A stretch of DNA of 64,000 nt, from assembly GCA_000002435.2 (NCBI GenBank), contig CM018792.1. One strand, given 5' to 3'. The notes under the pieces are model-generated. The model saw nothing but the letters and a program-made list of their open reading frames with translations. It searched no databases and had not been told where the DNA came from. Origin of the DNA: Giardia intestinalis. Its lineage: Eukaryota. Both the position numbers and the translations under genes were made by a program. Within the stretch, counting starts at the first letter, position 1. Every line of letters starts with the position of its first letter. Shown one piece after another: positions 3,938 to 36,551 of the stretch.

Positions 3938-4131
3938 TATTTATTGGTGGTTAAATTTGCTGATTTATAGGCTTTTAGTGTGAACTTAAAATCGGTCGTG
4001 GGTGTCTGCAGTTGACCCACAGAGTTCCCTCTACACGCACGCAGTGACCGATTTTTCAACCCTGCCATCTGCGGCCAACTATCTTCAAAGCGACACGCCA
4101 AAGAAGAGCATCAAACCACGGGGTTTACTCT

Positions 4132-4443
4132 CTATCTGTAATAGTCTATCCACTGGACACGGACATCCTGGTTGGCCGGCACGTCGAGCTCGAAGATTGC
4201 CTCTTGTGGCCCCTGGCGCACGTCAAAGTCTCCCCGTTCCTTGGTAATTTCGCCGATCGTCACGTCGAGGCCCTCGCAGTTAGAGATTGCAATGGCCACG
4301 GTCAGGCGCGTGGCGCTGCGGAGCCGAAACTGCACATGCCCGATCCCTCCCGGACATGCTAGGCGAAGCACACTCCCGCTGAGCTCTGCCGTTGCCCCCT
4401 CTCGCGCGTTAACGACCTCGATCTCCCCCGGATTCCCGTCCAT
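4132..4443 (-). CDS. Small hypothetical protein (103 aa, MDGNPGEIEVVNAREG...). Transcribed divergently from RPL7.
   Basis: ATG at 4443 preceded by an AT-rich tract. The longer track ORF (to 4638) would overlap the RPL7 start and is unlikely. No recognisable domain. Confidence 0.35.
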   Translation of the reverse strand: MDGNPGEIEVVNAREGATAELSGSVLRLACPGGIGHVQFRLRSATRLTVAIAISNCEGLDVTIGEITKERGDFDVRQGPQEAIFELDVPANQDVRVQWIDYYR

Positions 4444-4531
4444 CTCGACTATTCTGGGAAGCCTGCCCAATAATATTGTAAACCATTTGAATTTGATTTC
4501 TAGGTGATTATTAGTTGAGCCCCCGAACGAG
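4444..4531. promoter_or_regulatory. 88-bp AT-rich bidirectional intergenic or initiator region shared by the 4443(-) ORF and RPL7(+).
   Basis: Sequence taatattgtaaaccatttgaatttgatttctaggtgattattag. Giardia promoters are short AT-rich elements adjacent to the ATG. Confidence 0.4.
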
Positions 4532-17033: not shown

Positions 17034-18524
17034 ATGCATACGGGGCCTATTAGTGCCAATGCAGCAACCCGCAATAGCCATAGAAGGCTGCTCATACCGC
17101 TTCCTTCTAACTCTTTTTTACCTCCGCTGCTCTCTCAAAATTGTCTCCAAGCTTTTGTTGCTATGCGCCACGTCAATATAACACCTATTTATAGCGTTTC
17201 TCCCTGCAGTGATAAGGTGCTTCAGGTTTGTACTGAGCCGTGCGTTTCATGCACACTACGTCACGTAATCGACGAGCTTTCGTTTTTGGAGAGTGAATGT
17301 GGCATTAGGCTGGCAGCATCCATTTTTGTCGGGGCCTTGGAAGCATTGGCTTATTTAGCTTGTCTCAGTAGAGTGTGGGGACTAGAGTTAGACATTCAGA
17401 ATATAAATTGGCTGGATATGTTATGCGTAGATGACAGAGGGCAGTGGAAAATAATTGCCCATAAGATGAGTTCTTATCGGGGTGGTCACAAGCCATGCAA
17501 TAGCATATCAGGCACACATACGCCTTCTAATAACTTTCGTACTTGTGATGAAATAGCCCACATGTGTTTACCCGGTATGCAGTCACTGGGACTTATTATA
17601 TTGAATTTACTAGTTGCTGGGTCTCGCATTGACCTAGAGGAAAGTATAACGCTACGAAGTTGGAATAAACTTCAAACGGATATTGCATGCTCCCGAAACA
17701 AACACGAGATTCCTGACCTAAGGCTTTTCATTGATACGCTCAGTATCATATGGGACGAAAACTTCAACCAGCCTGTACATCCATATCACATACTCACGCG
17801 CCTTCTGCCCATTCTTCAGACATACATGAAAGACGAATCTACTAAAAGCGGAGCAGTGGACCCTGAACACAGAAGAAAATCAAAATACTCTCCGCTTATG
17901 CTCGGTGTCTTATCCAAAGACTATGAGCTCGTGCAAAGACACATTTCGTATGCAGGTTGTAGAACAGCATCAGGAATGACAGCCCTTATGATGGCGGCAA
18001 GAGACAATTTTGTAGAAGCCGTACAGATTCTACTTCCCCATGAAGCACACTATAAAACGTTTTTAGGGACTAGATTTGAGAGTAGAACAGCACTGATGTT
18101 CGCAACCCACAACCGCAACTACGACTCCATGCATATACTCTATGAGCAAGAAGCTGGAATCGCTAATGTCTATGGGGCCACATCCTTAATGCGTGCAGCT
18201 CAAAATGGAGATTGTGTAGCAGTTGAGATACTCATGAAGCGCGAAGCAGGAATGGCTAACTACACAGGGTTTACGGCACTGATGAATGGAGCCACAAAAG
18301 GCTTCACCAAAATTGTAAGTTTGCTGCTCCCATTTGAAGCAGGAGGAGTTACAAATGATAAGCACGAATGGGGAAAGGGCCATTCTGCCCTTTCGCTGGC
18401 GGCAATGAATGCTAACAAAGAGGTAGTTTTGTTGTTATATGAAGTTGAGCGACAGTTACTTAAGTCTCGGTGCATATTAACATCCGGAAAAACAGTGATA
18501 GAGGAGCTTATTGAAGGAAAGTAG
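17034..18524 (+). CDS. Ankyrin-repeat protein of the Giardia 'protein 21.1' family, 496 aa.
   Basis: C-terminal half is tandem 33-aa ankyrin repeats of the Giardia type (TALMMAARDNFVEAVQILLPHEA, TALMFATHNRNYDSMHILYEQEAG, TSLMRAAQNGDCVAVEILMKREAG, TALMNGATKGFTKIVSLLLPFEAG, SALSLAAMNANKEVVLLL). Confidence 0.7.
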   Translation: MHTGPISANAATRNSHRRLLIPLPSNSFLPPLLSQNCLQAFVAMRHVNITPIYSVSPCSDKVLQVCTEPCVSCTLRHVIDELSFLESECGIRLAASIFVGALEALAYLACLSRVWGLELDIQNINWLDMLCVDDRGQWKIIAHKMSSYRGGHKPCNSISGTHTPSNNFRTCDEIAHMCLPGMQSLGLIILNLLVAGSRIDLEESITLRSWNKLQTDIACSRNKHEIPDLRLFIDTLSIIWDENFNQPVHPYHILTRLLPILQTYMKDESTKSGAVDPEHRRKSKYSPLMLGVLSKDYELVQRHISYAGCRTASGMTALMMAARDNFVEAVQILLPHEAHYKTFLGTRFESRTALMFATHNRNYDSMHILYEQEAGIANVYGATSLMRAAQNGDCVAVEILMKREAGMANYTGFTALMNGATKGFTKIVSLLLPFEAGGVTNDKHEWGKGHSALSLAAMNANKEVVLLLYEVERQLLKSRCILTSGKTVIEELIEGK

Positions 18525-18539
18525 TATAGTTATCTAGTT

Positions 18540-21500
18540 ATGCCAGTTGATTACATGTGTCATACATAACGTGGTAGCCAATAGCTTAATATAATGCTAT
18601 CAATACATATGGTTATCATATTAAGACGCAGGACCTAAATGCTACAGGCGGCCTCAGAAAAAGCTCTCTGAGGGAACAAGAAGTGAGGCGACTAATGCAC
18701 CGAGGATGCTGCAGGCCTCTGTCCACGGAATGCAAACCCATTACTATGCAATTCGCTACCACAGGCTTCTGTTTGCGGTGACACAACTGCTGGGTGTCGC
18801 CACGCTCTGGAAGCTAGTGTACGGGCTCACGTTGTAAGGCCGGCGGACCGGAGGATGCAGGGGCCACAGGGTAGCGACTGACCATCATGGTTCTATAGGC
18901 TCTGCGGCTAGTAGCACAGGGGCAGGGATGCTGCATCCCGGTGATTGGCTCAGGGCCGCACTATCCAATGGGCCGACGACCCTCATGTTGTTTCAATCTG
19001 ACGTGGCCTCCACTGCTGCTCCCGTACGAGTTGGAGAAGGGGCTGGCCCCATCGAATGCGGCAGAGAACAACAGGCGCCCGGCCTTCGGGCGAGGAAGCT
19101 GGGTGATCTCGTCCAGGCGAAGCCGACTCCTCACCGTCCTCTGGGTCCTGCCTCTTCTACCGCCCTGGCACAACATAGCTCGGTAGGGGGCGGCGTGTCT
19201 GCGCTACAGGACGCGTCGTCAAGAAAGAGTGGGCCTGGAGAGACCCGACGGCCACCGCTGGGATAGGCCTCAGAAGCCCTTGGCTGCAGGATACGCTACT
19301 GCCAGGGTCAGTGCAGGCTATGGCTTTGAGGAAGCGCAGGACTGATGGGTGCTATCAGGAAACACCTGGCACGTTCTCGTGTAGAGGGGGACTCAGGCTT
19401 GCGGGCTCGGATGTCTGCCATTTCCGTGTCAAGTTGATGTGACCAGATCAGGGGCAGTGGTCGAGGGATCGATCCACAGGCTCCAGAACAATATGTCGAA
19501 GAACAAGCAATCAGACTGGCGGTGGCTTCGGCAGTGTCGTGGCCCGGGCCTCTTCAGCCGCGCTTGATGGAACCCGACGTTGCGCCAGGCGACGGGACAG
19601 GGCACCGGTCGTCCTTAGAGCATGCAGGAGGCGAGGCTTGTGAGCCCATGGGCGTCTGGCCTGCCAGCTGAGGCCACATCGGTGACGAGGCCCAGGGTGA
19701 TGCAGCGTGGATGACCCTGTGCGCGTGTGCTCTGTGATGACGGGCCTGACGGTGAGTGCAGCAAGGTTATAGGCACGGGCTCTGTCTGGGCCAGGGCCCC
19801 AGAGCTCTTTCTGTCGCAGGGAAGAATAGGGCAGCGCGGTGCAAGGAAGGCATCTAGCAGGATGCTGGGAAACTGACCCGATGTGGCAAATCACGGGCGC
19901 TGCCAAACACGGCGTCTCTTCTCTTAGACAGAAGACAGGCAGAGTGGATGATTGCGGAGGCTGCAGTGTCCGTGGTAGATCGCGGCATCGCAAGGTGGCT
20001 GAGTCTGTGCCGGTGTGTCTGTCCGGGCTCTAAGTGCGCTCTGAGGATCACCTGCTGATGGGCTGGAAGGCCCGAGAAGTGATGCGCTGCCCTTGTCATC
20101 GCGGGCAGCGCCCTGTGGCACGCACTCGAGCCAGCGCCTCCTGGTGGCCAGAAGCAGAGCAGAGGCAGACGGCCGGTCGTGCATCCGTCCAGGCGGCTCA
20201 CTGCGTGTAGAGCGAAGAAGACCACCTGCGCCGCTCGGGTTATTGCTCAGCATCAAGTGCGGATGGAAGGCTGGGCCCGGCAACCAGGGCGCCGACCTGC
20301 ACGCTCCCGTCAGCCATCCCAGGCCGGTCAGAAGCCAGGCTCGACAGGCAGTGCAAATGCCAGGGAAGCCAGCGTGACCATCGGGCCCGCGTTTGAATGC
20401 TAAAAAACTTGGGCAGCGATGGCGACTGTCGTCTTCCTGGGAGGGCGCCTCTTCGCACAGGGTCAGCCGTCCTGGCCCTGCATACTGGGTGCGCGGCTCG
20501 AAGGCGCGCTGTGCTAGTTGTGGACCTGTCAGGCGCTGCAGCCTACGAATAGCACGGACGGATGCAACGGAGTGTCCGCGCAGTGCACTGTCATTGTCCC
20601 AGAGAGCTGTTGTTCTAACCATGCGCCCTACACCGGCTCGGCATACCCCTGCTGCTTCCGCTGCTGGTCTGTCTGCCACTTGTTTATTATAGCGGGGGGC
20701 GCATACGCTTATAGTGTCGTCTAGGCACTGTAGTGGTCTTCTCGGACGGTGCATGTATATTCACATGATGGCCGATGGGTGGAGCGGCTGCCTGATCTTA
20801 GAGCTCTCATTGCAACAAGGCGGGGCGTCGGCTGTCTACACGCCTCTAAGCGAGCCCGCGACCTCTGTGCAGATGCCTGCTCGCCGCGCTCCATAGTGAC
20901 GGCTGTACACCCAGAAGGGGTCGCAGAATCCTCCGCTGTCCTTCGAGGTGGACCACGGCTTGTGCACAGGCTAGCGACGGGGCCTGCGCACCAGTTGCTA
21001 TGGGTCCAGTCTGCCGGGCACCTGGATTACAGTGCACGTCAAGACTGCACACTCGTTTGCATGCTCGCTGCTCGTGTTGGACAGAACTGCGAGGGGTCTG
21101 TCTCTGGCCATCCTCGCCTTAGTGCTTGGCCCTTGATGACACGCCTCAGCAGAGGATGGTGTCTTCTAAGTACTCGGAAGACTATCCGTGCCTGGCGGTT
21201 CCTAGAGAGTCGGTTCGCACAGAAAGCGTAGATGTGCCCGGCGGGCTGGCGGGGTAGGGCTGGGGCTACAGAGACTAGCCATTAGCCCGGATTACAGCAG
21301 GGACACCTGTAGTGCCTCCTCGGCTCCTAAGCGTGGAAAGGCCGTAGAACTTGCAGATGAGTTGGAGGCTGGTTTTTGATTTTATGCATTTGCAGCAGAG
21401 CAGAGTTTACTGAAGGTCCACTTATTCTAAATTCGAGGAGCCTCATCTCCTCCTCACACACGGTGAGATGATCGATTGTAGAGGTGTATTGTGCAAACCG

Positions 21501-21978
21501 GTGGCAGTCAGCGTATATCCAGACGGATACTGCCTGCGTCCTCTTGTGGCAGACCACCACCAGGGCTCCAATCTGCACATCTGTTCTGGCATCTGTCGGG
21601 CAATCATCACCTTTGGTCGAATGATTGCTGTACGTCACACAGCTTGAGCCATCCGTCGACCAGGTGGTGCCATAAGCTCTTGTCCCCTACTTGTCCACCC
21701 GATGCAGACTCTGAGCGCCGCCAGTTGCACTCACGTCTGCACTACTCATCTGGATGCCCCCACTCTTCAAGAGCACATGCCCGCAGCCGATGCTCCGTAT
21801 TACAAGAGGAGCCAGCCGGGCCACTGCGCTGTGCATAGCTCTCCTGGGCGTATTGTTATGCGCGCCCAGCCTTTCCATCTATAAGTCACCACGCAGCTCT
21901 TTCCCACCGTCTCGCGTCCACATGTGCGCCAGCGCCGCCGAGCTTTCGTGGTCTCGAGGGGCCCCTGATGCATGGAGC
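18540..21978. other. About 3.4-kb GC-rich tract with no credible ORF and no rRNA/tRNA signature. It is the flank to the left of the palindrome.
   Basis: Only GC-skewed ORFs of low complexity (Arg/Ala/Pro-rich) in all frames. Universal rRNA motifs are absent, and the composition differs from neighbouring genes. Confidence 0.4.
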
Positions 21979-23204
21979 GCTTGCGCAAAGTCCTTCCACC
22001 ACTGACCCAAGCCGACCCCTCGCAAGATCCTTAGCGGAGTTGCGTCCGAGATGTGTGCCTGCGTTGCTGTCCAGGTGCATGTGCCGGCCCTGGTGCTTCC
22101 CACAAGCTTGCGAGCATCGAGCTGGCCGCTACCGAACCGTATCAGAAGTCAGCACCAGGATGTAGTCCCATCAGTCAGGCTCTGCAGGCTCCCAGAGCTA
22201 CGCATCAAAAGGCCGTTCTTCTTTGGTTGTGCAGCGTGGGGAGATGCACCGAACTACCACACCCTCTCCGTGTGGCGTGGTTTACGACGGGGGACGGGGT
22301 CCCTGTGCTCATGTCTATCTGCCCAGGACGAGTCGCAGCCCGGGTTGACAATGACAAGCGAGCATCGCCCGGCTCCTTGTCAGCGGGTGGGAGATCCCGC
22401 CACCCTAGTACCCACAGCAACGGGTGCCGATCACTGGCAGAGGGACACGACACCCAGGCTCCCGTTCCTTCCACTGATGGTAGCCCACTATGAAGAGCCC
22501 TTTGTCGCCTGCACCAACAACCTCAGGCACTGTGGGTCAGAGCGCCTCCATAGTGGACAGCGGTAGCACTATGATGATCTGGGGTGACAGGAGTCCCGGT
22601 CTATCAACTCAGGAGACAGCACGCTTTGGGCAATGCTTCCCTCCTGTCCAGATCTGGGAGGACTGGCTGCCTTCTGAGCCCACCTGGCACCTTGTCAGGT
22701 GATGGAGTGTCTTAAAGTATTCATTACAAAAGATCAGAAATAGCGCCATGCATTCCCAATAGACCAGAACGTCTCCTAGGCTACTCTATGCTGATTCGCA
22801 CCTTTCATGGACCCTAGCGATCACTGTAATCTTCTCTCGGGATCCCGCAAGGGACTGTCCTTGAGTGCGATTCCCCCACGACAGCCGGGAGTCGCAGACA
22901 TAATCCAAAGGGATGAGAGTACTACAGAGGCTGAGAGGAGAGCGCCGATGCACAGGGGTCCGCAGAGACCCGGTTCGTACAGGGAAGGCGTGGAGGCTGG
23001 CTCTCCAGGGATGTAGAGCCACCAGGAAAGGAGCTGGCAGTGGGGCTTAGGCGCAGCAGAGGCACCCGATCCGTCCTCTGATTGGCCGCGAGGCAGTAGG
23101 CGCATGGGGCGGCATCACCGCTTGTTTTTGGATTTTCTGCTTCCCTGCGCGTTGTGCAGGGGTCCGCAGTGGGCTGAGTATCACAGGCTACACATAGTAG
23201 ATGC

Positions 23205-23219
23205 GTTTACTACCTAAGT
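23205..23219 (-). terminator. VSP extended polyadenylation signal ACTTAGGTAGTAAAC
   Basis: Matches the conserved VSP 3' element ACTYAGRTAGTRAAY directly after the stop. Confidence 0.6.
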
Positions 23220-23221
23220 AC

Positions 23222-25465
23222 CTACGCCTTCCCTCTGCAGATGAACCACCAGCAGAGGAAGCCGACGAGGCCGGCCACAATGACAACCGCCGCGACAGAG
23301 ATCCCTGCTATGGCACCGGTAGAAAGGCCGCTCTTATTCGTGCTTCCCCCGGTACTTTCACCGTTCATGAGGTAGCAGAGAACGGAGCCACTACCAGCCG
23401 ATGGAGGGGCGCAGCTAGCGCAGTTGGCGACGCCGGTGATGGATCCCCCGTCGCTCTTGTCGCATGCTATACACTTTTCTTTGGACGGGTAGTACCCTGC
23501 AGCGCACACCGTGCACTTGGTGGCGTCGTTCGCATTGCACTCGGAGCACTCAGTGGCGCAGGGAACACACTTCTTAGTGTTACCGCCAGTCTTAGCATAT
23601 CCAGCCTTACACGTGTCGCACTGGTCCTGGCTGGTGCACGTCTTACATCCGGCCGAGCAAGTGATGAGCGCGCCGTTATTCAGCTTGTACCCGTCGGCCG
23701 GAGTCTGACAGGCATCGCTCGCTTCTGCTGCGGCTAAGCAGACGCTCTTTCCGGGGAACTTGGTCGTCTCATAGCAGCCCCCGTTCATACGAAGAAGCCC
23801 GTTGGCGCATTTGTCACAGACACCAGTCCCTTTGGTAGTGCACGTAATAGCCTTTCCGGCCGCCGCCGAGCAGACTCCGTTCTGTGGAAACTGGCCGGCT
23901 TCCTTGCACTTGGAGCAGTAGGCCGTGCCATCGACCGTCAGCTCGCACTTCTCGCAGTTGTTAGCATTTGGCTCGCATCCTGGTTTGCACGTCCCCGTGT
24001 TGCCCTCTCCTTCGTAGCTGAGGGCCTTCTTAGGCTCACAGCTCGTACACCCGTTGGAGTTCCCGTTCGCGCACGTCTTGCACGAGGTATCGCACTTGGC
24101 ACAGGCGGTTTCTTTCTTGTAGTATCCGTCCTTGCAGGTCTCGCACTGTCCTTGCCCGTTGCACAGGAGGCAGTTCTCGACCTCGCACTTCTTGCAGGCC
24201 TTCTTGCCCCCCTCGTTGGTGCCCGCGTAGTAGCCTCCCAGATCTCCGCACGCATCGATGCACTGGCCCGTGGGCGTGAGGGCCTTAGTGCCCTCGCACT
24301 CTGTGCACACCTCCTTGCTTGTCTTCGGCTCACTGCACGTCTTGCAGCCGGGGGTGTTGCACGGCGCCGCAGGGGGGTCGGACTTCTTCATGCACCCGGT
24401 GCCGGCCTCCTCGGGAACGTAGCCCTCAACGCACTCACAAACGCCAGAGGTCTTTTCCTCGTTGGAGTTCAAGGGGCAGCTTTCAACGCACCCCTTCTTG
24501 TTTGGCTGGACCTTCTTCTGGTTTTCGCACGTCTTGCAGGCGACTGCTCCATCGGCGCCCTTCTCGCACGTCGCGCATCCATTGGAGGTCCCCTCGGCGC
24601 ACGCCTTGCACGTCTTCGGCTCAGTGTCGTCGGCGTAGTGGGTGCTTTGATTCTTGCACTCAGTTTCGGTGACGCACGTGCCAGTGTCGCTGCCATTATC
24701 CTTCTTCAGGTACGGCTTGTCGTCCTTACAGGAGGTGCACTTCGCAGCCTCGGTCTTACAGGTCTTGCAACCAGGATCACACGCCTCACAGGTTTTGGTG
24801 CCGCCATTTTTCACGAAGAACCCTTCGGTGCCGGTGCACTCTTCTTCTGTCACGCAGGAGGTGGCTGAATCTGTAGCCGTCTTCAGATACTTACCTTCTT
24901 GGCACGCAGTGCATGTGGCAGCCTTAGTGCCACTAGCTGATAGTTGCTCTGGTTTCTCACAGGTAGCGCACCCAGCCACCCCCGTGTATATCTTATCGCC
25001 AGTAAGTGTTACGCCCGTCGCGTCTCCGCACGAAACAACAGAGTCGTGGGCGTCGTCTGTATCTGCCGGCGGGACAAAGTACTTATTTCCAGCGACAGCC
25101 TCTGTGCACTTACCAGCATCTGCCGCTTGACACATGGCATTGCCAGGGGGTTTTGCTCGTTCATAGCACCCGCCCTTGTACATGAAGGAGTTGCCGTTAC
25201 ATCCTGTACATTTTCCGCCTGCGTGTGTCTTACATACTGCTGTATCAGACGACACATCTGTGCATACCCCGTTGACAGGAGCGCGATCAGCGGGATCTGC
25301 CTTGCATTGAGAGCAATACAATTTACCATCAATCAGAACGTTGCATGCCTCATCGGCACAATTGGTAGTTTGATCTGCACAGGTAGCCGTTCCAGCTTTT
25401 TCTGCTATCTGTGCCGTCCATACAAACTGAAGGATTACCCCCGCGAGAACAAATCTACAGAACAT
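23222..25465 (-). CDS. vsp: Variant-specific surface protein (VSP), 747 aa, copy A.
   Basis: Signal peptide MFCRFVLAGVILQFVWTAQIA, dozens of CxxC motifs, GGCY motifs, and a C-terminal TM plus invariant CRGKA tail (GLVGFLCWWFICRGKA). Confidence 0.93.
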   Translation of the reverse strand: MFCRFVLAGVILQFVWTAQIAEKAGTATCADQTTNCADEACNVLIDGKLYCSQCKADPADRAPVNGVCTDVSSDTAVCKTHAGGKCTGCNGNSFMYKGGCYERAKPPGNAMCQAADAGKCTEAVAGNKYFVPPADTDDAHDSVVSCGDATGVTLTGDKIYTGVAGCATCEKPEQLSASGTKAATCTACQEGKYLKTATDSATSCVTEEECTGTEGFFVKNGGTKTCEACDPGCKTCKTEAAKCTSCKDDKPYLKKDNGSDTGTCVTETECKNQSTHYADDTEPKTCKACAEGTSNGCATCEKGADGAVACKTCENQKKVQPNKKGCVESCPLNSNEEKTSGVCECVEGYVPEEAGTGCMKKSDPPAAPCNTPGCKTCSEPKTSKEVCTECEGTKALTPTGQCIDACGDLGGYYAGTNEGGKKACKKCEVENCLLCNGQGQCETCKDGYYKKETACAKCDTSCKTCANGNSNGCTSCEPKKALSYEGEGNTGTCKPGCEPNANNCEKCELTVDGTAYCSKCKEAGQFPQNGVCSAAAGKAITCTTKGTGVCDKCANGLLRMNGGCYETTKFPGKSVCLAAAEASDACQTPADGYKLNNGALITCSAGCKTCTSQDQCDTCKAGYAKTGGNTKKCVPCATECSECNANDATKCTVCAAGYYPSKEKCIACDKSDGGSITGVANCASCAPPSAGSGSVLCYLMNGESTGGSTNKSGLSTGAIAGISVAAVVIVAGLVGFLCWWFICRGKA

Positions 25466-26474
25466 TGGGGTCAGCCGGTTACTAGGAGACGGACAGAACT
25501 ATTAATACATTATTATCAATCTGTGTGATACACAGTAGAGTGTAATACTGGGCACACTTCTGAACGACGTCACGTGAGTGATGAGAACGCCATCCTGTCA
25601 TTCGCGGAGGGCCTCTCATTCTCCCTCGTTATAGACCGTGGCAACAGAGACACAACAGGCAGCTCGTCCGTCTCCGTAAGCATTCCAGGGAGTCCTGCCT
25701 GTCTGTACGAGGAGGTTTACTCTTCCACCAAGGACGGTTTCCGGCTGCTTCCGGTACATCAGTCGTGCCTGGACCGCTAGTCTGTTGACCGCTCGGGATT
25801 TCAGATATGAAGGCTTGGATGTGTCCAGGTTCTGGTGGCGGTGATGGAGTATTCCACGTGGGTTTTTGCAGGGGCGGGTCTTTCTGAAGCATACCGCAGG
25901 CAGATCTGCGATACACTGACCCACTACCATTGACGGGTGCTCTTGCGCTAGTCTTGTATCTGGTTCGCTGATGATCCCCCCTAGACGACATCTTCCGCCA
26001 TCTCTCGGAGAAGCGCGGTCTCAGACCAACCTCCAGTGGAACAACTCATCAGTTCCGCCTGTGTGGCGGGCTTCAGGCTTACCTGCAGGCGTAATCCAGA
26101 AATTTCACGAGTGGGTCTCGTCATTCCTGGCCAGTTCAGAGACGAGGGTTGGTCGTTAATGATATAATAGGGATCTCCCTTCACTTGTATACCAGGAGTC
26201 TTTTGCGTCTCTCAGTCGCTCCGCAGGGGTGTGCTCAGGCTGAGTATGCACGCCGGTCCTTTCGGGGTTCAGGCCTTCTCGTGGACTCTCTGCTCTATCA
26301 GTGGCGCCTCTCCTTGGTCTGCCGCCTTGGTGGGTGTAACTCTGGTCACTGTCCTTTTTTAGATGCTCCCGTCTGTCAGGGGCCGTCATCGGGCTCTCCG
26401 CTGGCTGGGCCTCTCAGTGTCCGGGCAGCTGTGGCTCGAGTCAGGGCTCCCACGGTCGCGGTCACTTGGGTCTC

Positions 26475-26600
26475 AGTGGGTCAGCTGGTGGGTGAGGCGG
26501 GGTTGGTGGGTGAGGCTGGAGGGCTCTGGTGGGGGCTGAGGCGGGGGGTGTTGTATGTGCCTCTGGATCCGGTGGGCCAGTGGGGTGGTGGGTGATCCCC
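26475..26600. repeat. G-rich tract (GGTGGGTGAGGC-like units, runs of G3-7) about 1 kb upstream of the VSP inside the IR arm, with potential G-quadruplex formation. Mirrored at 30595..30720.
   Basis: ggtgggtgaggcggggttggtgggtgaggctggagggctctggtgggggctgaggcggggggtg... A diverged second copy of the adjoining about 45-bp motif lies at 26960-27010. Confidence 0.45.
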
Positions 26601-27729
26601 TCTCTGTTTGCCAAGGTGGTTGCGTCTGATCCCCAGCCTTCGTTGCACTCCTGAGACAGAGGCACCGACGATCGTGTCGTGTCCCCTGACTGAGCGCCTC
26701 CCTTGGCCCCTGCATGTCTCGGGCAGTACTGCTTCTCTGTTTGACTAGTACGTGAGTGTTGAGGCAGGCCATCGCAGCCTCTCCTGTTGCTCGCTGGTGC
26801 TCTGTGCGGGTCTGCTGAGCCCCTGGCATGCCCTGTCCAGTGCCTCGACGGTAGTTCACCTCGGGCCAGCAGGGGTGTGGATGAGCCTGTGGATGGGATG
26901 GGGTGCTCTCAGGCCTCTAGTGTGATGGCCCTCGAAGACTGGCATGGTGGGGACCGGGTGGGCGGTGTTGTATGTGTCCCTGGTCCGGTGGGCCATGTCG
27001 GGTGATCGCAGCTGTGGTGACTGGAGGCTGTCTATCTGTGACCCATCCCTCTGTGGACTCGGGAGTGCCCTCCGCCCAGGCAACAGTGGTGCTGCTGGGG
27101 CCCTCGCCTGCGGGCGCTGTCCAAAATCTCGCGAGTAAATTCCCGCTCAATTTTTGGCGATGTCCGGAGACGAGGGTTGGTCACGGGCCGTAACGATAAT
27201 CACAGCGGTTGTAAGGAGGAGCTATCTGCGTTCCTCGGCTGTTCCGTGGGCGTGCGCACAGCTGGACCTGAAGCGTCGAAGAGCCCGCGAGGACCCGATC
27301 CGCATTATGAATGCAAGATCGTACCTCCGGGGCCCCCAGAGAGCAATCGTGAGTCTCTACTCGGGGGACCACTCCGAAGACGTTTACTCTCTCAGCAGGA
27401 CACACGTGCTGGCTCTGTGGCCAACCGTGTGAGAGCGCCAAGCAACTAACCGAGCACCTGAGAGAAGCAAACGATGACAGACACAGAGTGCTGGGCGACG
27501 ACAAGTTGATCATTCCGGCCCAGTACCGAACCGGACAGCTGCCATGCTCATCCACCAAGGTGCACGCATGATCGCGAGCATCGAGCAGGCTGGGACTGGG
27601 GTCGCGCTCCCCGCTATCAAGGGCCTGAACGCCCTGGTGGGAAGCCCCAGAAGACTCAAGCAACACAGTAGAGCAGGCCCAGAGTAAGGCAGACCCAGAC
27701 CCCGAGAAGGCGAGACGCCGGATAGCAAA

Positions 27730-29690
27730 CAGGGTGAACAACGCGCTGAGCTTCGGGGCAGTTGCTAAGGCTCTCCGCGCCCTTGATGAGACACCCATGG
27801 TAGACATCAAGTCGGAGAAGGCCGACCGCCCTCAGCGCGCTACACCTGTGCGTCCTCCCGAAGGCTACGTTGGCCTTGACTACCCTCCATCGATGAACTC
27901 GACGGGCTGGAGCCGGCAACCGAGGAGGAAATGAGGAAGGCCCTGTTGGGACTCTCAACAAGAAGGCCTCGGGCCGGTCCAGCTCAAGGCGATGAAGCAG
28001 AGCGACAGCTTCGTGAAGTACCTCACGCAGGCATACAACGAGCTGACCACCCACCCCGAGGCGATGCCAGAGGTGATGGCCATGCTCGAGTTCCGGGCGA
28101 TCCTCATCCCGAAGGAGTCCGACGGATACCGCCCGATCGCGATAGGCGAGACGGTGACAAACATCTTCCACCGCGTCCTGCTGAAGGGCTGATCAGGCAT
28201 GCCAACTACCTCTTGTGCGAACAGATCGCCTTCATGCAGAACGCATACGCGGTAGGTGTGAGGAGGGCCCACGAGCTCATCAGCAGGCGGGGATGCACGC
28301 CGTCTCCCTCGACATAACGAACGCCCTCAACTCGCTCCCGAGGGCAGAGGTCGCCAGAGCCCTGAACGAGGCGGGCGTCCCGAAGGTCATGGTCGACCAC
28401 ATCGGGGACTTCCTCGACCTGAGGCACAGCCGGGACGTGAAGTGCGAGGTCTGCGGCGTCCCCCAGGGCGACCCGCTCAGCATGCTCCTCTTCTGCATGG
28501 CCATCGAGCGCCTCCTGAGACGCCTCAAGGAGAGAGGCATCCCCTTCCTTGCCTATGCGGACGACATCGTGGCGTTCCACGACGAGGCCTACCCGGCAGG
28601 TGTGATAACACAGCTGGCCATGGGCCTGACGATCAGGAGCGACAATGCAAGTCCACCATGGCGGGCGAGGAGGTGACCTTCCTCAACCACCCGGTGTCCC
28701 CCACTCCAGCAAGCCTTACCCCAAAGGCCATCGCAGGTGCTGAGACTGCCCTGAGGAAGATCGAGAACGCCCCAATAACCACCCACCAGAAGCTCATCCT
28801 GCTGTCACTCTGTGTGATCCCGATGGTGAACTACGCCCCCCTGGTCGAGATAACATCGGACAAGGCGGACTACGAGGAGCTGACAGACGTCGCACAAGGC
28901 TTCAGCAAGCTAGCCAACAGAAGCTGCGATCGCCTGGTCGACTTCCTGGCGTACCCGAAGGAGAAGGGCGGCCCGGGCCTGCTCATGCTGGGACTCTACC
29001 ACGACGAGCTGCGGAGGGCATGGACTCCCTGGACGTCAACAAGGGGGCCAGAGACCCGGTGGAGCTGTCGGTGGAAGGCCAGGCACTGCAAGGGAAGGGG
29101 GCCTACTTCAACCGCCTCCTCACGCGCACACACCAGCTTTCGGACAGAGCGGCGGCGTGCTGACCGAGGAGGAAAGGGCCCTGAAGCAGAGAGATGGCTC
29201 GATCATGGGGCAGACAAGAGGCACCTGCCCGGGCTGCCACACGGCAAGGACCCTCGACCGCGACATGATCGTCACGTGCCTGTACCTCCGCGTCTCGGGG
29301 AAGCTCAACCGGAGCTGGAAGTCAAGACCCACAGCCACCTCAGCGACCAGAACCAGAAGCCCGACATCTGGCTCGTCGACAAGTGCAAGGCAGTGGACGT
29401 GCGTGTCATCCAGCCCCGCCAGATGGATGCCTACTACAACGAGAAGGCCAAGAAGTACAGGGACGGGACGCTCCCGATCATCTACGGGACAGATGGATCC
29501 CTCCACCCCAAGTCCAAGGGGCACCTCGAGGAGCTCCACGTGGACCTCTGTCCGGGCTGCCTTCGCCATCGCCTACATGGCTGCAGAGGCGAACGAGCAC
29601 CTGACGGAGCTGATCAGACGCGACCGGGCCGAAAGCCTGGTCACCCAGAGCGACCGTCTCCTGTCATCCTACTTCTGACAACCGAATGAA
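27730..29690 (+). mobile_element. Decayed, frameshifted non-LTR (LINE) retrotransposon fragment carrying reverse transcriptase and a C-terminal CCHC + PD-(D/E)xK (REL-endo) domain, like GilM/GilT/GilD (NeSL/R2 clade). It sits in the unique spacer between the IR arms.
   Basis: RT motif 0 (TEEEMRKALLGLSTRRP), motifs 1/2 (ILIPKESDGYRPIAIGE), A (HAVSLDITNALNSLP), B' (GVPQGDPLSMLLFCMAIERL) and C (FLAYADDIVAF). Downstream lie CPGCH...C and KPDIWLVDKCKAVDVRVIQP (REL-endo). Motifs are spread over at least 3 reading frames, so the copy is non-functional. Confidence 0.7.
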
Positions 29691-31729
29691 TCCATCCCCG
29701 GGACCCGACGACAACGACCGAGAAGGGGCAAAGACTGGACACACAGCCGAGTTGAATCCCAACCAGAAGAGAAAGCCCGCTAGCTGCTGCTGATCTGTAT
29801 GGACAGTATTGAGAATGACAACAAAGACCAGAGCTTCACTCACCGTGAAGGGAGAACAAGGAGAGGCGCTCTAACAGGCCAGCGAACCTGCAGGACGGCT
29901 TGATCTCTGAAAGAACCGATGTGCACATCCAGTCTGAGTGTACTCCTGTAGAATAGCCGAGGAACGCAGATAGCTCCTCCTTACAACCGCTGTGATTATC
30001 GTTACGGCCCGTGACCAACCCTCGTCTCCGGACATCGCCAAAAATTGAGCGGGAATTTACTCGCGAGATTTTGGACAGCGCCCGCAGGCGAGGGCCCCAG
30101 CAGCACCACTGTTGCCTGGGCGGAGGGCACTCCCGAGTCCACAGAGGGATGGGTCACAGATAGACAGCCTCCAGTCACCACAGCTGCGATCACCCGACAT
30201 GGCCCACCGGACCAGGGACACATACAACACCGCCCACCCGGTCCCCACCATGCCAGTCTTCGAGGGCCATCACACTAGAGGCCTGAGAGCACCCCATCCC
30301 ATCCACAGGCTCATCCACACCCCTGCTGGCCCGAGGTGAACTACCGTCGAGGCACTGGACAGGGCATGCCAGGGGCTCAGCAGACCCGCACAGAGCACCA
30401 GCGAGCAACAGGAGAGGCTGCGATGGCCTGCCTCAACACTCACGTACTAGTCAAACAGAGAAGCAGTACTGCCCGAGACATGCAGGGGCCAAGGGAGGCG
30501 CTCAGTCAGGGGACACGACACGATCGTCGGTGCCTCTGTCTCAGGAGTGCAACGAAGGCTGGGGATCAGACGCAACCACCTTGGCAAACAGAGAGGGGAT
30601 CACCCACCACCCCACTGGCCCACCGGATCCAGAGGCACATACAACACCCCCCGCCTCAGCCCCCACCAGAGCCCTCCAGCCTCACCCACCAACCCCGCCT
30701 CACCCACCAGCTGACCCACTGAGACCCAAGTGACCGCGACCGTGGGAGCCCTGACTCGAGCCACAGCTGCCCGGACACTGAGAGGCCCAGCCAGCGGAGA
30801 GCCCGATGACGGCCCCTGACAGACGGGAGCATCTAAAAAAGGACAGTGACCAGAGTTACACCCACCAAGGCGGCAGACCAAGGAGAGGCGCCACTGATAG
30901 AGCAGAGAGTCCACGAGAAGGCCTGAACCCCGAAAGGACCGGCGTGCATACTCAGCCTGAGCACACCCCTGCGGAGCGACTGAGAGACGCAAAAGACTCC
31001 TGGTATACAAGTGAAGGGAGATCCCTATTATATCATTAACGACCAACCCTCGTCTCTGAACTGGCCAGGAATGACGAGACCCACTCGTGAAATTTCTGGA
31101 TTACGCCTGCAGGTAAGCCTGAAGCCCGCCACACAGGCGGAACTGATGAGTTGTTCCACTGGAGGTTGGTCTGAGACCGCGCTTCTCCGAGAGATGGCGG
31201 AAGATGTCGTCTAGGGGGGATCATCAGCGAACCAGATACAAGACTAGCGCAAGAGCACCCGTCAATGGTAGTGGGTCAGTGTATCGCAGATCTGCCTGCG
31301 GTATGCTTCAGAAAGACCCGCCCCTGCAAAAACCCACGTGGAATACTCCATCACCGCCACCAGAACCTGGACACATCCAAGCCTTCATATCTGAAATCCC
31401 GAGCGGTCAACAGACTAGCGGTCCAGGCACGACTGATGTACCGGAAGCAGCCGGAAACCGTCCTTGGTGGAAGAGTAAACCTCCTCGTACAGACAGGCAG
31501 GACTCCCTGGAATGCTTACGGAGACGGACGAGCTGCCTGTTGTGTCTCTGTTGCCACGGTCTATAACGAGGGAGAATGAGAGGCCCTCCGCGAATGACAG
31601 GATGGCGTTCTCATCACTCACGTGACGTCGTTCAGAAGTGTGCCCAGTATTACACTCTACTGTGTATCACACAGATTGATAATAATGTATTAATAGTTCT
31701 GTCCGTCTCCTAGTAACCGGCTGACCCCA

Positions 31730-33973
31730 ATGTTCTGTAGATTTGTTCTCGCGGGGGTAATCCTTCAGTTTGTATGGACGGCACAGATAGCAGAAAAAGC
31801 TGGAACGGCTACCTGTGCAGATCAAACTACCAATTGTGCCGATGAGGCATGCAACGTTCTGATTGATGGTAAATTGTATTGCTCTCAATGCAAGGCAGAT
31901 CCCGCTGATCGCGCTCCTGTCAACGGGGTATGCACAGATGTGTCGTCTGATACAGCAGTATGTAAGACACACGCAGGCGGAAAATGTACAGGATGTAACG
32001 GCAACTCCTTCATGTACAAGGGCGGGTGCTATGAACGAGCAAAACCCCCTGGCAATGCCATGTGTCAAGCGGCAGATGCTGGTAAGTGCACAGAGGCTGT
32101 CGCTGGAAATAAGTACTTTGTCCCGCCGGCAGATACAGACGACGCCCACGACTCTGTTGTTTCGTGCGGAGACGCGACGGGCGTAACACTTACTGGCGAT
32201 AAGATATACACGGGGGTGGCTGGGTGCGCTACCTGTGAGAAACCAGAGCAACTATCAGCTAGTGGCACTAAGGCTGCCACATGCACTGCGTGCCAAGAAG
32301 GTAAGTATCTGAAGACGGCTACAGATTCAGCCACCTCCTGCGTGACAGAAGAAGAGTGCACCGGCACCGAAGGGTTCTTCGTGAAAAATGGCGGCACCAA
32401 AACCTGTGAGGCGTGTGATCCTGGTTGCAAGACCTGTAAGACCGAGGCTGCGAAGTGCACCTCCTGTAAGGACGACAAGCCGTACCTGAAGAAGGATAAT
32501 GGCAGCGACACTGGCACGTGCGTCACCGAAACTGAGTGCAAGAATCAAAGCACCCACTACGCCGACGACACTGAGCCGAAGACGTGCAAGGCGTGCGCCG
32601 AGGGGACCTCCAATGGATGCGCGACGTGCGAGAAGGGCGCCGATGGAGCAGTCGCCTGCAAGACGTGCGAAAACCAGAAGAAGGTCCAGCCAAACAAGAA
32701 GGGGTGCGTTGAAAGCTGCCCCTTGAACTCCAACGAGGAAAAGACCTCTGGCGTTTGTGAGTGCGTTGAGGGCTACGTTCCCGAGGAGGCCGGCACCGGG
32801 TGCATGAAGAAGTCCGACCCCCCTGCGGCGCCGTGCAACACCCCCGGCTGCAAGACGTGCAGTGAGCCGAAGACAAGCAAGGAGGTGTGCACAGAGTGCG
32901 AGGGCACTAAGGCCCTCACGCCCACGGGCCAGTGCATCGATGCGTGCGGAGATCTGGGAGGCTACTACGCGGGCACCAACGAGGGGGGCAAGAAGGCCTG
33001 CAAGAAGTGCGAGGTCGAGAACTGCCTCCTGTGCAACGGGCAAGGACAGTGCGAGACCTGCAAGGACGGATACTACAAGAAAGAAACCGCCTGTGCCAAG
33101 TGCGATACCTCGTGCAAGACGTGCGCGAACGGGAACTCCAACGGGTGTACGAGCTGTGAGCCTAAGAAGGCCCTCAGCTACGAAGGAGAGGGCAACACGG
33201 GGACGTGCAAACCAGGATGCGAGCCAAATGCTAACAACTGCGAGAAGTGCGAGCTGACGGTCGATGGCACGGCCTACTGCTCCAAGTGCAAGGAAGCCGG
33301 CCAGTTTCCACAGAACGGAGTCTGCTCGGCGGCGGCCGGAAAGGCTATTACGTGCACTACCAAAGGGACTGGTGTCTGTGACAAATGCGCCAACGGGCTT
33401 CTTCGTATGAACGGGGGCTGCTATGAGACGACCAAGTTCCCCGGAAAGAGCGTCTGCTTAGCCGCAGCAGAAGCGAGCGATGCCTGTCAGACTCCGGCCG
33501 ACGGGTACAAGCTGAATAACGGCGCGCTCATCACTTGCTCGGCCGGATGTAAGACGTGCACCAGCCAGGACCAGTGCGACACGTGTAAGGCTGGATATGC
33601 TAAGACTGGCGGTAACACTAAGAAGTGTGTTCCCTGCGCCACTGAGTGCTCCGAGTGCAATGCGAACGACGCCACCAAGTGCACGGTGTGCGCTGCAGGG
33701 TACTACCCGTCCAAAGAAAAGTGTATAGCATGCGACAAGAGCGACGGGGGATCCATCACCGGCGTCGCCAACTGCGCTAGCTGCGCCCCTCCATCGGCTG
33801 GTAGTGGCTCCGTTCTCTGCTACCTCATGAACGGTGAAAGTACCGGGGGAAGCACGAATAAGAGCGGCCTTTCTACCGGTGCCATAGCAGGGATCTCTGT
33901 CGCGGCGGTTGTCATTGTGGCCGGCCTCGTCGGCTTCCTCTGCTGGTGGTTCATCTGCAGAGGGAAGGCGTAG
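31730..33973 (+). CDS. vsp: Variant-specific surface protein (VSP), 747 aa, copy B. Its protein is identical to copy A, and the two are oriented head-to-head.
   Basis: Identical translation to 23222..25465(-). Has the CRGKA tail, with ACTTAGGTAGTAAAC at 33976..33990. Confidence 0.93.
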   Translation: MFCRFVLAGVILQFVWTAQIAEKAGTATCADQTTNCADEACNVLIDGKLYCSQCKADPADRAPVNGVCTDVSSDTAVCKTHAGGKCTGCNGNSFMYKGGCYERAKPPGNAMCQAADAGKCTEAVAGNKYFVPPADTDDAHDSVVSCGDATGVTLTGDKIYTGVAGCATCEKPEQLSASGTKAATCTACQEGKYLKTATDSATSCVTEEECTGTEGFFVKNGGTKTCEACDPGCKTCKTEAAKCTSCKDDKPYLKKDNGSDTGTCVTETECKNQSTHYADDTEPKTCKACAEGTSNGCATCEKGADGAVACKTCENQKKVQPNKKGCVESCPLNSNEEKTSGVCECVEGYVPEEAGTGCMKKSDPPAAPCNTPGCKTCSEPKTSKEVCTECEGTKALTPTGQCIDACGDLGGYYAGTNEGGKKACKKCEVENCLLCNGQGQCETCKDGYYKKETACAKCDTSCKTCANGNSNGCTSCEPKKALSYEGEGNTGTCKPGCEPNANNCEKCELTVDGTAYCSKCKEAGQFPQNGVCSAAAGKAITCTTKGTGVCDKCANGLLRMNGGCYETTKFPGKSVCLAAAEASDACQTPADGYKLNNGALITCSAGCKTCTSQDQCDTCKAGYAKTGGNTKKCVPCATECSECNANDATKCTVCAAGYYPSKEKCIACDKSDGGSITGVANCASCAPPSAGSGSVLCYLMNGESTGGSTNKSGLSTGAIAGISVAAVVIVAGLVGFLCWWFICRGKA

Positions 33974-33975
33974 GT

Positions 33976-33990
33976 ACTTAGGTAGTAAAC
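33976..33990 (+). terminator. VSP extended polyadenylation signal ACTTAGGTAGTAAAC
   Basis: Conserved VSP 3' element 3 nt after the stop. Confidence 0.6.
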
Positions 33991-35855
33991 GCATCTACTA
34001 TGTGTAGCCTGTGATACTCAGCCCACTGCGGACCCCTGCACAACGCGCAGGGAAGCAGAAAATCCAAAAACAAGCGGTGATGCCGCCCCATGCGCCTACT
34101 GCCTCGCGGCCAATCAGAGGACGGATCGGGTGCCTCTGCTGCGCCTAAGCCCCACTGCCAGCTCCTTTCCTGGTGGCTCTACATCCCTGGAGAGCCAGCC
34201 TCCACGCCTTCCCTGTACGAACCGGGTCTCTGCGGACCCCTGTGCATCGGCGCTCTCCTCTCAGCCTCTGTAGTACTCTCATCCCTTTGGATTATGTCTG
34301 CGACTCCCGGCTGTCGTGGGGGAATCGCACTCAAGGACAGTCCCTTGCGGGATCCCGAGAGAAGATTACAGTGATCGCTAGGGTCCATGAAAGGTGCGAA
34401 TCAGCATAGAGTAGCCTAGGAGACGTTCTGGTCTATTGGGAATGCATGGCGCTATTTCTGATCTTTTGTAATGAATACTTTAAGACACTCCATCACCTGA
34501 CAAGGTGCCAGGTGGGCTCAGAAGGCAGCCAGTCCTCCCAGATCTGGACAGGAGGGAAGCATTGCCCAAAGCGTGCTGTCTCCTGAGTTGATAGACCGGG
34601 ACTCCTGTCACCCCAGATCATCATAGTGCTACCGCTGTCCACTATGGAGGCGCTCTGACCCACAGTGCCTGAGGTTGTTGGTGCAGGCGACAAAGGGCTC
34701 TTCATAGTGGGCTACCATCAGTGGAAGGAACGGGAGCCTGGGTGTCGTGTCCCTCTGCCAGTGATCGGCACCCGTTGCTGTGGGTACTAGGGTGGCGGGA
34801 TCTCCCACCCGCTGACAAGGAGCCGGGCGATGCTCGCTTGTCATTGTCAACCCGGGCTGCGACTCGTCCTGGGCAGATAGACATGAGCACAGGGACCCCG
34901 TCCCCCGTCGTAAACCACGCCACACGGAGAGGGTGTGGTAGTTCGGTGCATCTCCCCACGCTGCACAACCAAAGAAGAACGGCCTTTTGATGCGTAGCTC
35001 TGGGAGCCTGCAGAGCCTGACTGATGGGACTACATCCTGGTGCTGACTTCTGATACGGTTCGGTAGCGGCCAGCTCGATGCTCGCAAGCTTGTGGGAAGC
35101 ACCAGGGCCGGCACATGCACCTGGACAGCAACGCAGGCACACATCTCGGACGCAACTCCGCTAAGGATCTTGCGAGGGGTCGGCTTGGGTCAGTGGTGGA
35201 AGGACTTTGCGCAAGCAGCTCTGTGGCCTGTTGGTCGCATTCTCCTCTGCCGTAAAGGACACCTACCAATGATCGTTACGAACTGGATGACCCCCGTCTG
35301 TCTTTGAGACTCACCAGTGTGCACAGTTGTCGATGAGGCGGAGTCGTCCACCAGTCACGCCCTGCTGGGCTAGTCACTGTCACCGGTGGCTAAGGAGCAG
35401 CAGGAGCCGTCTGCCTCCGCACGGAAGGCCTCGAGGGGTCGTGTTACGCTGGAAGCCGGTCACTGTTCCACATATCCGCTACCTAATTATGGGCAGGAGT
35501 ATCGGACACGAGAAGAGCTACGACAAGGACTCGCTGGGGTAAGCGTGCTCTGCAGCTCCTTTGGATGCCCCAGTCCCTTACGGCTCAGGCACTGGGGCCT
35601 CAATGCATCTGCCCCTTACTGGGTTCTCCACCGGCTAGTGCGACCTAGGCAGACACAGAGGAGTCCCGGCTCCTGTTCTGTGCAAGCTCGTCAGACCGGC
35701 CTGGTCGTGAGGTTTGGAGACACCTAGGTCGAGTACTCCCAGGTCCCTACTCCAGACAGGCAATCTTGTGGTGGGATCATTCACTCTAGAGGGTAGTCCA
35801 GAGCTACCAACAAAATAAACCCGATTATCCAATAACTTCCACCTTTTGAAAAATC

Positions 35856-36374
35856 ATGTCTGTCACGAGTCGTTTGATGCGTGAATACCAGAAGTTCTCG
35901 AAGACAGACATTCCAGGAGTCATGGCGCTGCCAGACCAAAAGGATGAGCGCTGTTGGAATTGCATAATTCTGGGGCCCGCCGGGACAGCTTGGGAGAATG
36001 GTAAGCTATGTATAAGGATGAAATTTCCCAACGAGTACCCTATCAAACCTCCTTCTGTACATTTCGTAACATCGATGTATCATCCAAACGTTTATACGGA
36101 CGGCTCGCTTTGTTTAGATATTTTGCAGTCACAGTGGTCTCCTTGCTTTACAATCTTGTCTGTCCTCCTTTCCATTCAGTCCCTTCTGACAGACCCGAAT
36201 CCATCATCTCCGGCCAATAGCGATGCCGCGCACAAATATAACTGTGATATAGATGCATACAATCGCGAAGTAAGAGCACGCATGGAAAGGTCGCAGAGCT
36301 TTATCAAAGAAGAGCCGTGGTGTAGAGTCTATGAGGCGCTTCAGAATAGAAAAGTAGCAGATAACACTTCATGA
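35856..36374 (+). CDS. Ubiquitin-conjugating enzyme E2, Rad6/UBE2A-B-like.
   Basis: UBC fold with HPN and active-site Cys, nearly collinear with Rad6: [40 protein letters not shown]...[16 protein letters not shown] versus [40 protein letters not shown]...LLDEPNPNSPANS. Confidence 0.85.
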
Positions 36375-36551
36375 CCATACGCTGGCTTTCCAGCTATCGT
36401 TAAAATGTGGGATGAGCCTGCTTTGCTGTGGATCAGACGGTGACCGGTACTGTTCATCGTCTGCTGGCCCATTGGCGGAGACTATAGCAGAACAAGCCTT
36501 TTCGCAAAGGAGTGAATTGGGTACCTCTATCAGTAATAAAAACTACAAGCT

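Follow-up and report, generated by a model that had tools for sequence, protein, structure and literature searches.

Chromosome 4 of Giardia intestinalis WB clone C6 (2,761,001 bp; contig CM018792.1 of assembly GCA_000002435.2) carries a perfect 5.26-kb palindrome, in which two identical and complete genes for a variant-specific surface protein (VSP) stand head-to-head around the body of a dead non-LTR (non-long terminal repeat) retrotransposon. Here, we describe this locus within a 64,000-nt stretch of the chromosome (the window), to which all positions refer. The inner junctions of the palindrome coincide with the retroelement's own terminal inverted repeat (TIR), and a related palindrome surrounds the same element at a diverged locus in another isolate. 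The structure is in all likelihood a genuine inverted segmental duplication, the arms of which probably grew outward from the retroelement repeat and are probably kept identical by gene conversion.

The left arm (positions 21979–27240, 5262 bp) is the exact reverse complement of the right arm (29955–35216, 5262 bp): when one is aligned to the reverse complement of the other, 0 mismatches are found over 5262 bp. A perfect inverted repeat of this length cannot have arisen by chance. In direct comparison, complementarity is lost at once beyond both outer and both inner arm ends, and the four boundaries (21978/21979, 27240/27241, 29954/29955 and 35216/35217) are sharp. A repeat finder, which stretches the arms by ~21 imperfect bases, returns this inverted repeat as the sole repeat of at least 60 nt in the window. 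The arms are separated by a unique spacer of 2714 bp (27241–29954, plus strand) that forms the body of the retrotransposon. From inside to outside, the right arm consists of the TIR, 426 bp without a homologue, a 582-bp module (the inner-arm module; 30533–31114, mirrored at 26081–26662), 613 bp without a homologue, the VSP unit, and 1218 bp of 3′ flank (33999–35216, mirrored at 21979–23196), where 'without a homologue' refers to the comparison loci that we fetched. The 3′ flank contains nothing recognisable and has no homologue in any of these loci. Counted from the VSP, the duplicated flanks measure 1775 bp on the 5′ side and 1243 bp on the 3′ side, and the start codons of the two divergent VSPs are 6264 bp apart. 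The initial annotation of this stretch, made from the sequence alone, had proposed a perfect 5.26-kb palindrome of mirrored open reading frames (ORFs), with a 2.7-kb spacer, 6.3 kb between the VSP 5′ ends, and flanks of about 1.2 kb and 1.8 kb. All of these values agree with ours; the two VSP ORFs are both 747 aa long and identical, and their coordinate sums equal 57195.

The two VSP genes are located at 23222–25465 (minus strand, left copy) and 31730–33973 (plus strand, right copy). Each encodes the 747-aa protein in a single ORF with a Pfam VSP match (PF03302, E=6.6e-141) that scores 470 bits against a cutoff of 31.4, and their identical translations match KAE8304498.1, KAE8304499.1 and XP_001704560.1 (Giardia WB) exactly. 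Judging from the accession order, the left copy is presumably GL50803_00d112801 (KAE8304498.1); the right copy is presumably GL50803_00112801 (KAE8304499.1), as it adjoins the gene for a ubiquitin-conjugating enzyme (UBC) E2, as in the 2007 assembly. The protein starts with a hydrophobic N-terminus (MFCRFVLAGVILQFVWTAQ) and ends in ...GLVGFLCWWFICRGKA, in which a conserved transmembrane segment is followed by the CRGKA tail. Xu et al. 2020 (PMC7000408) retained only VSPs with a SignalP-predicted signal peptide, and the pair is on their list. At the start codon lies an initiator (Inr), CAatgTT (31728–31734), and the sequence CAATGTT is also given for 112801 by Adam et al. 2010 (PMC2996952). The polyadenylation (polyA) element ACTTAGGTAGTAAAC begins 3 nt past the stop codon (33976–33990), and with the CRGKA tail it bears out the earlier description of a complete VSP.

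Together, these features form a VSP gene module that extends from the initiator to just beyond the polyA element (31728–33998, plus strand; mirrored at 23197–25467, minus strand). Named Giardia VSPs match 112801 at 60–88% identity, the best cluster representative being VSP AS10 (88%), to whose 90% cluster the WB protein belongs. Homology of 82% to two singleton VSP loci, one in the DH isolate and one in an ENA metagenome contig (L021 and L022), is confined to the module: its limits lie 2 nt upstream of the ATG and 25 nt downstream of the stop codon, and no homology to the window is found in the flanks of these two loci. Because homology starts and ends at 31728–33998, the VSP gene behaves as a discrete cassette, and VSP genes appear, as far as sequence comparison tells, to be exchanged or duplicated as such sharply bounded cassettes. 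The closest non-WB VSPs, two DH proteins (P0002 and P0003, 76–77% identical), were considered as positional orthologues and rejected, being singletons at an unrelated locus.

The initial annotation did not recognise the spacer as a degenerate reverse-transcriptase (RT) element. The RT coding sequence of the spacer shifts between three reading frames and is interrupted by stop codons, and a frameshift-corrected conceptual ORF (27353–29686) nearly fills the spacer. A fragment of the RT domain with a YADD motif is detected at 28215–28676 on the plus strand (Pfam RVT_1, E=1.8e-15). RVT_1 was the only family found, and no endonuclease family was detected, in a Pfam scan that covered the central region in its three plus-strand frames, as X-masked translations. 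Giardia RT homologues are 57–68% identical: DHA2_154256 (68%) and DHA2_152589 (62%) from the DH isolate, and an ORF from the GS isolate (57%). The latter (P0122) is intact, with 1108 aa and an RVT_1 match of E=1.2e-26, and the WB copy is 57% identical to it over 596 aa. The alignment of the WB element to P0122 does not start before residue 356, so this copy is 5′-truncated in addition to being frameshifted. A CxxC...H motif in the WB element (CWLCGQPCESAKQLTEHLRE) aligns to the GS ORF, in which matches to C2H2 fingers are weak and fall below the Pfam cutoff.

We compared the element with paralogous retroelement loci in DH (L011 and L020) and GS (L012). In this comparison, the homologous stretch is longer than the spacer: it reaches into the left arm as far as ~27089 and into the right arm as far as ~30106. 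At its inner end, each arm thus has 152 bp that are the element's own TIR, with the left copy at 27089–27240 (minus strand; core 27124–27180) and the right copy, which is the element's 3′ end, at 29955–30106 (plus strand; core 30015–30071). In a multiple alignment, the motif at the inner boundary, AGCCGAGGAACGCA, is common to WB and the DH paralogue L020 within 3 nt. At L011, it is kept in the right-hand copy only, the left copy having decayed. The GS copy has the 3′ segment and the core in common with WB, its 5′ TIR not being observable. Since the TIR boundary is common to paralogues, the inner junctions of the palindrome have been inherited from the retroelement and were not made by the duplication at this locus. 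Within the TIR, a 57-nt core (CCAACCCTCGTCTCCGGACATCGCCAAAAATTGAGCGGGAATTTACTCGCGAGATTT) is nearly invariant between the assemblage A copies and the assemblage B copy (L012), the rest of the element being ~73% identical. This core may be the 3′-end recognition site for the element's reverse transcriptase.

The element may be GilD/Genie 2-like, and Genie 2 copies reportedly carry inverted repeats of up to ~172 bp. GilD (Arkhipova & Morrison 2001) and Genie 2 (Burke et al. 2002) resemble our element in the YxDD motif of the RT, in a possible CCHH finger, in being degenerate in WB, in a length of ~3 kb including the ends, in short terminal inverted repeats, and in internal chromosomal positions. 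Unlike the dead GilD and Genie 2, our element has relatives in which long ORFs are intact, of at least 1108 aa in GS and of 587 and 595 aa in DH. Uninterrupted ORFs are located at positions 1–3327 of the GS locus (L012, AHHH01000232.1), where they include putative zinc fingers and a full RT, and in DH at positions 1840–3603 of L020 and 10001–11788 of L011. All three of these copies adjoin VSP genes, at or near a contig end. Judged by these reading frames, the retroelement family may still be active outside WB, or may only lately have been inactivated there.

A further comparison is with L020 (AHGT01000170.1), where a palindrome surrounds the same element in DH. Its arms are 909 bp long (163–1069 and 3869–4773) and 95.5% identical to each other, ranging from 86% to 100% in 100-bp windows, with the highest values at the outer end and the lowest in the inner TIR. 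Between WB and L020, identity is 79% in the inner-arm module (to both L020 arms; ~71% to L011) and 88.7% in the RT body, and 87–89% in the RT body across the DH paralogues. A shared inner boundary at diverged loci implies that the inverted architecture predates the divergence of these loci, each of which keeps its own arms near-identical. In L020, the VSP 3′ ends face inward (convergent) at both contig ends, so the orientation of VSPs relative to the retroelement is not fixed between loci.

These observations suggest how the palindrome may have formed and been kept. The long arms would result from inverted duplication at the DNA level, seeded by the short TIR, for example through fold-back or template switching during repair. 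Such an event would have extended the TIR outward by 5.1 kb, taking in cassette-specific DNA, the VSP unit and 1.2 kb of 3′ flank, up to outer junctions that are specific to the locus. Recurrent intrachromosomal gene conversion, rather than the mere youth of the duplication, would then hold the arms identical, and the 2.7-kb spacer would keep the palindrome stable in replication. The outcome would be two co-located copies of one expressible VSP, which would belong to the antigenic-variation repertoire like any other VSP and offer a substrate for recombination, without a dedicated role as an RNA hairpin. For large palindromes, such as those of the human Y chromosome, arm-to-arm gene conversion is established. 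The present locus resembles the Y palindromes P1–P8 in having near-identical, kb-scale arms, a unique spacer, members of a multigene family, and an arm identity far above what would be expected from the age of the structure. It differs in size (5 kb here, 9 kb to 1.45 Mb on the Y chromosome), and conversion is deduced here from paralogues rather than from orthologues between lineages.

For the absence of divergence, the initial annotation had named recent duplication, ongoing gene conversion and an assembly artefact. These are the right options, and the evidence favours gene conversion. A very recent one-off duplication, with arms extended shortly before the cloning of WB and without gene conversion, is unlikely though far from negligible. 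It was Adam et al.'s own suggestion for such pairs (2010, PMC2996952), it would leave 0 mismatches in 5262 bp, and it is in keeping with the cited figure of less than 0.01% for WB heterozygosity, with the differences between AI and AII VSP repertoires, and with the failure to find a close DH orthologue of 112801. However, nearly all WB inverted pairs are identical and identical vsp genes occur only in such pairs, which would be odd for a set of independent recent events. Furthermore, the same inner boundary and inner-arm module are present, inverted, at a DH locus that is 11–21% diverged, and the break of a DH contig at 35217 suggests that the outer boundary is older than the AI/AII split. Maintenance by gene conversion, for its part, meets several difficulties. 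It is deduced from paralogues in 454 draft assemblies; a positional orthologue of the pair was not recovered in another assemblage; the AII contigs on the left stop at 20648–21336, before they reach the arm boundary; and the closest DH VSPs (76–77%) are singletons elsewhere. Identical arms would likewise be expected if palindromes formed repeatedly and independently at retroelement TIRs. The junctions show no microhomology, target-site duplication, A-tail or polyA tail, and so give no clue to mechanism. Part of the perfect identity may be owed to consensus polishing with multi-mapping reads. As to the junctions themselves, the 415-aa spacer ORF and ten ORFs across the four junctions gave no matching record, a result that is uninformative rather than negative.

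An artefact, in which chimeric or fold-back long reads, or a misjoin, have produced a false mirror image of a single VSP locus, is the least probable of the readings we considered, and the support for a real palindrome is strong, though indirect. Perfect identity is what such an artefact would yield, the 2007 Sanger assembly had a single copy only, and duplicated pairs were once questioned as artefacts, according to a passage in Rodriguez-Walker et al. 2022 (bioRxiv 10.1101/2022.03.07.483299). However, fold-back reads come without a 2.7-kb unique spacer and without two distinct unique flanks inside a chromosome, and the presence of both here, mid-chromosome, disfavours an artefact. Moreover, the spacer is a genuine retroelement whose TIR sets the inner junctions, and L020, an independent 454 contig of DH, has the same architecture. 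The outer flanks are collinear with independent AII assemblies at 97.5–98.6% identity, and the DH (AII) contig AHGT01000028 ends exactly at window position 35217, the first base outside the right arm. Such an end is the assembler behaviour expected at a true repeat boundary and supports a real repeat, just as the tendency of the pairs to end Sanger and short-read contigs is the signature of one. The vsp1267 inverted pair was known before genome sequencing (Adam et al. 2010, ref. 17), and the reference assembly, as described in the data paper, has 200x PacBio coverage and agrees with optical maps (PMC7000408).

The initial annotation went further and proposed that the palindrome is a built-in source of double-stranded RNA (dsRNA): a transcript running from arm through spacer to arm would form a long hairpin and be diced to ~26-nt small interfering RNAs (siRNAs) that silence this VSP and its relatives. 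We consider this very unlikely. Any RNA that spans both arms must indeed fold into a perfect hairpin, as follows from the identity of the arms. Giardia has Dicer, Argonaute and an RNA-dependent RNA polymerase (RdRP), and a model of VSP control by RNAi has been put forward (Prucca 2008, as presented in a citing paper). In addition, bidirectional promoters and pervasive antisense transcription are found in Giardia, and antisense reads over 112801 do exist. The geometry, however, is unfavourable. The two VSPs diverge, so their sense mRNAs leave the palindrome, and divergent transcription from either VSP promoter would pair the non-coding 5′ flanks only. For coding sequence to be part of a hairpin, transcription has to start in antisense beyond the 3′ end of a VSP and then read through more than 6.3 kb, across the retroelement. 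Such a transcript would also pass AGTRAAY motifs at 27134 and 31474, a weak argument, given that three such motifs on the plus and four on the minus strand compare with a chance expectation of ~3.2.

Expression data point the same way, as far as they go. They come from strand-specific RNA-seq for a small sample of genes in Table S9 of Rodriguez-Walker et al. 2022, expressed in transcripts per million (TPM). With multi-mapping reads counted, 112801 has a sense TPM of 1.3–13 and an antisense TPM of 50–107. Mean antisense values for identical pairs are ~81 (112801), ~23 (111933/111936) and ~124 (112208), those for VSPs without an identical partner range from ~2 (112693 and 112867) to 131–221 (111732, 113163 and 112113), and housekeeping genes cover roughly 0–900, mostly tens to a few hundred. 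In this small sample, antisense transcription over identical pairs is not above that over unpaired VSPs or housekeeping genes, and the antisense coverage for which the initial annotation had asked falls, at 112801, within the range of unpaired VSPs. Another identical pair, vsp1267 (112208), is tail-to-tail, the geometry best suited to read-through hairpins. It can be the dominant VSP: according to the same table, it reaches 17,987 sense TPM in the clone that expresses it, and this same clone shows its lowest antisense value. An identical inverted pair is, on that evidence, not self-silencing. Small RNAs at VSPs are mostly sense in the genome-wide survey of Chen 2009 (PMC2817412), where inverted pairs are not discussed. 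Two repertoire papers that list 112801 are without the words 'hairpin' and 'dsRNA', respectively, and a pseudogene inside a sister pair is described as non-transcribed in a passage of the 2022 preprint (bioRxiv 10.1101/2022.03.07.483299). The geometry, the ordinary level of antisense transcription and the expression of vsp1267 all disfavour the proposed dsRNA source, which is unsupported rather than disproved. What stands of the initial interpretation is the structure, with two complete, identical, head-to-head VSPs in a perfect palindrome; the dsRNA function attached to it has no specific support.

In other organisms, hairpin-RNA loci that give rise to endogenous siRNAs are long inverted repeats transcribed as one RNA, as in the hpRNA genes of Drosophila and the siRNA loci of Trypanosoma brucei. 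Our locus resembles these in having a long perfect inverted repeat with a spacer, a possible Dicer substrate. It differs in that each arm is a complete, expressible gene that points outward, with ordinary antisense transcription. One can still imagine a regulatory RNA module, in which rare read-through from a promoter in the flank crosses one VSP in antisense, the dead retroelement and the other copy. The resulting multi-kb hairpin would be diced without RdRP into siRNAs against the clade of VSPs with 70–88% identity, and the ~20 inverted pairs would act as primary triggers of VSP silencing. This extended scheme is about as unlikely as the simple hairpin source. A milder reading, that VSP palindromes nucleate at the TIR of a dead retrotransposon and that gene conversion between the arms keeps them uniform, is more likely.

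The 5.26-kb VSP palindrome is already known, both as a member of a class and as an individual locus. Table 2 of Xu et al. 2020 in Scientific Data (PMC7000408) lists the pair d112801/112801 on chromosome 4 with the orientation '<- ->', 747 aa, 6264 bp and a psiRT between the copies; the same tables give 19 duplicated VSP pairs, with an RT remnant within four of the seven divergent ones. Table S4 of Rodriguez-Walker et al. 2022 (bioRxiv 10.1101/2022.03.07.483299) lists the pair again, with 'two retrotransposon relics' between the genes. According to statements in that preprint, head-to-head pairs often hold retrotransposon remnants, and most pairs are tail-to-tail with 'VSP-like' spacers. Earlier, Adam et al. 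2010 (PMC2996952) had reported 14 identical inverted pairs (14 of 19) with abruptly diverging flanks, had found identical vsp genes solely as inverted pairs, and had noted that pairs end contigs prematurely. Their gene list does not flag 112801 (vsp169) as one of a pair, which indicates that the pair was collapsed in the 2007 assembly. Later counts of inverted pairs in WB are 19–20. The prototype is vsp1267, with copies ~3 kb apart, which dates from the pre-genome literature (ref. 17 in Adam et al. 2010, PMC2996952), and seven identical inverted vsp pairs are known in Giardia muris (Xu et al. 2020 in Microbial Genomics, PMC7641422). Published tables thus answer the question, raised in the initial annotation, whether other VSP loci share this architecture: there are ~20 identical inverted pairs in WB.

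The locus resembles the inverted vsp pairs of WB and G. muris in its identical inverted ORFs, the abrupt end of its flanks, its kb-scale unique spacer and its tendency to break contigs. Identical inverted ORFs and abrupt flank ends, as are usual for the class, are both present, and the ORF distance of 6264 bp lies outside the usual 2–4 kb, a descriptive range rather than a defining criterion, within which the 2714-bp spacer does fall. Compared with the pairs in Adam's Table 5, the ORFs are farther apart (6264 bp versus 2190–3847 bp), and the identical flanks are longer (1775 bp on the 5′ side and 1243 bp on the 3′ side, versus 139–729 bp). It is the largest of the retroelement-centred pairs, and it is head-to-head with a psiRT, whereas most others are tail-to-tail. 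Relative to what these published tables and passages contain, our additions are modest: the extent of the arms (5262 bp) and their identity without a single mismatch, 3 kb of non-coding flank included; the position of the inner junctions, which fall on the conserved TIR of the retroelement; and the contrast between within-locus and between-locus identity, which points to concerted evolution of the arms.

As a discovery, the palindrome is minor, since the reference annotation and two published tables already include the pair, and knowledge of its class goes back to vsp1267 and Adam et al. 2010. Nevertheless, identical inverted VSP pairs are still called 'cryptic', and their origin and upkeep become testable through inner junctions that are the retroelement's own TIR, through diverged paralogues in other isolates that share the inner boundary (L020 most clearly), and through arms that are identical within a locus while the loci diverge. 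If gene conversion does maintain the arms, palindromes would preserve intact, expressible VSPs in a family rich in pseudogenes; if nucleation at the TIR holds as well, they would parallel, in a protist, the palindromes of the Y chromosome. The duplication also matters in practice. In the unique-mapping quantification of Table S9 (supplementary file 8), GL50803_00112801 has a value of 0 in each of the 14 columns, sense and antisense, since the two copies of 112801 are identical. Studies that discard multi-mapping reads will report ~40 paired VSP genes as silent, and analyses of RNA and small RNA in antigenic variation must treat multi-mapping explicitly.

The palindrome lies between the genes for ankyrin repeat protein 1 (17034–18524, KAE8304497.1) and ubiquitin-conjugating enzyme E2 (35856–36374, KAE8304500.1). 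Between KAE8304497 and KAE8304500, no coding sequences are annotated besides the two VSPs, and the VSP, ankyrin, UBC and prefoldin proteins match consecutive WB accessions exactly (KAE8304497–8304503). Scans of 18000–36500 for Rfam families, tRNAs and tandem repeats gave no match, and a search of the outer flanks for an older, decayed palindrome beyond the arms found none. To the left, 3.4 kb without an annotated gene separates the ankyrin gene from the left arm (18525–21978). This flank is unrelated to the retroelement and to every fetched locus, has a GC content of ~0.57–0.63 from 19001 onward, and is 97.5% conserved in assemblage AII contigs as far as 21336.

Some features of the flanks concern how assemblies end here. 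Logan short-read contigs from many WB-type runs match at 100% and stop at 18691 on the left and at 35634–35668 on the right. These ends do not fall on the arm boundaries but lie 3.3 kb and 0.4 kb, respectively, beyond them; something else in the GC-rich flanks breaks short-read assembly at these positions. The DH contig AHGT01000028.1 (125,590 bp; L001 and L019) has its position 1 at window position 20648 and its position 125590 at window position 35217. Both ends have the same relative orientation, so the contig exits the VSP locus on the right and re-enters it on the left, a circular permutation relative to WB. This could reflect a ~140-kb tandem duplication, a rearrangement of blocks between AI and AII, or a 454 misjoin. 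To the right of the palindrome, ~67 bp (35381–35447) is present in WB and absent from the orthologous DH sequence, and the first 164 bp outside the arm is 91.5% identical between WB and DH, compared with 98.6% further out.

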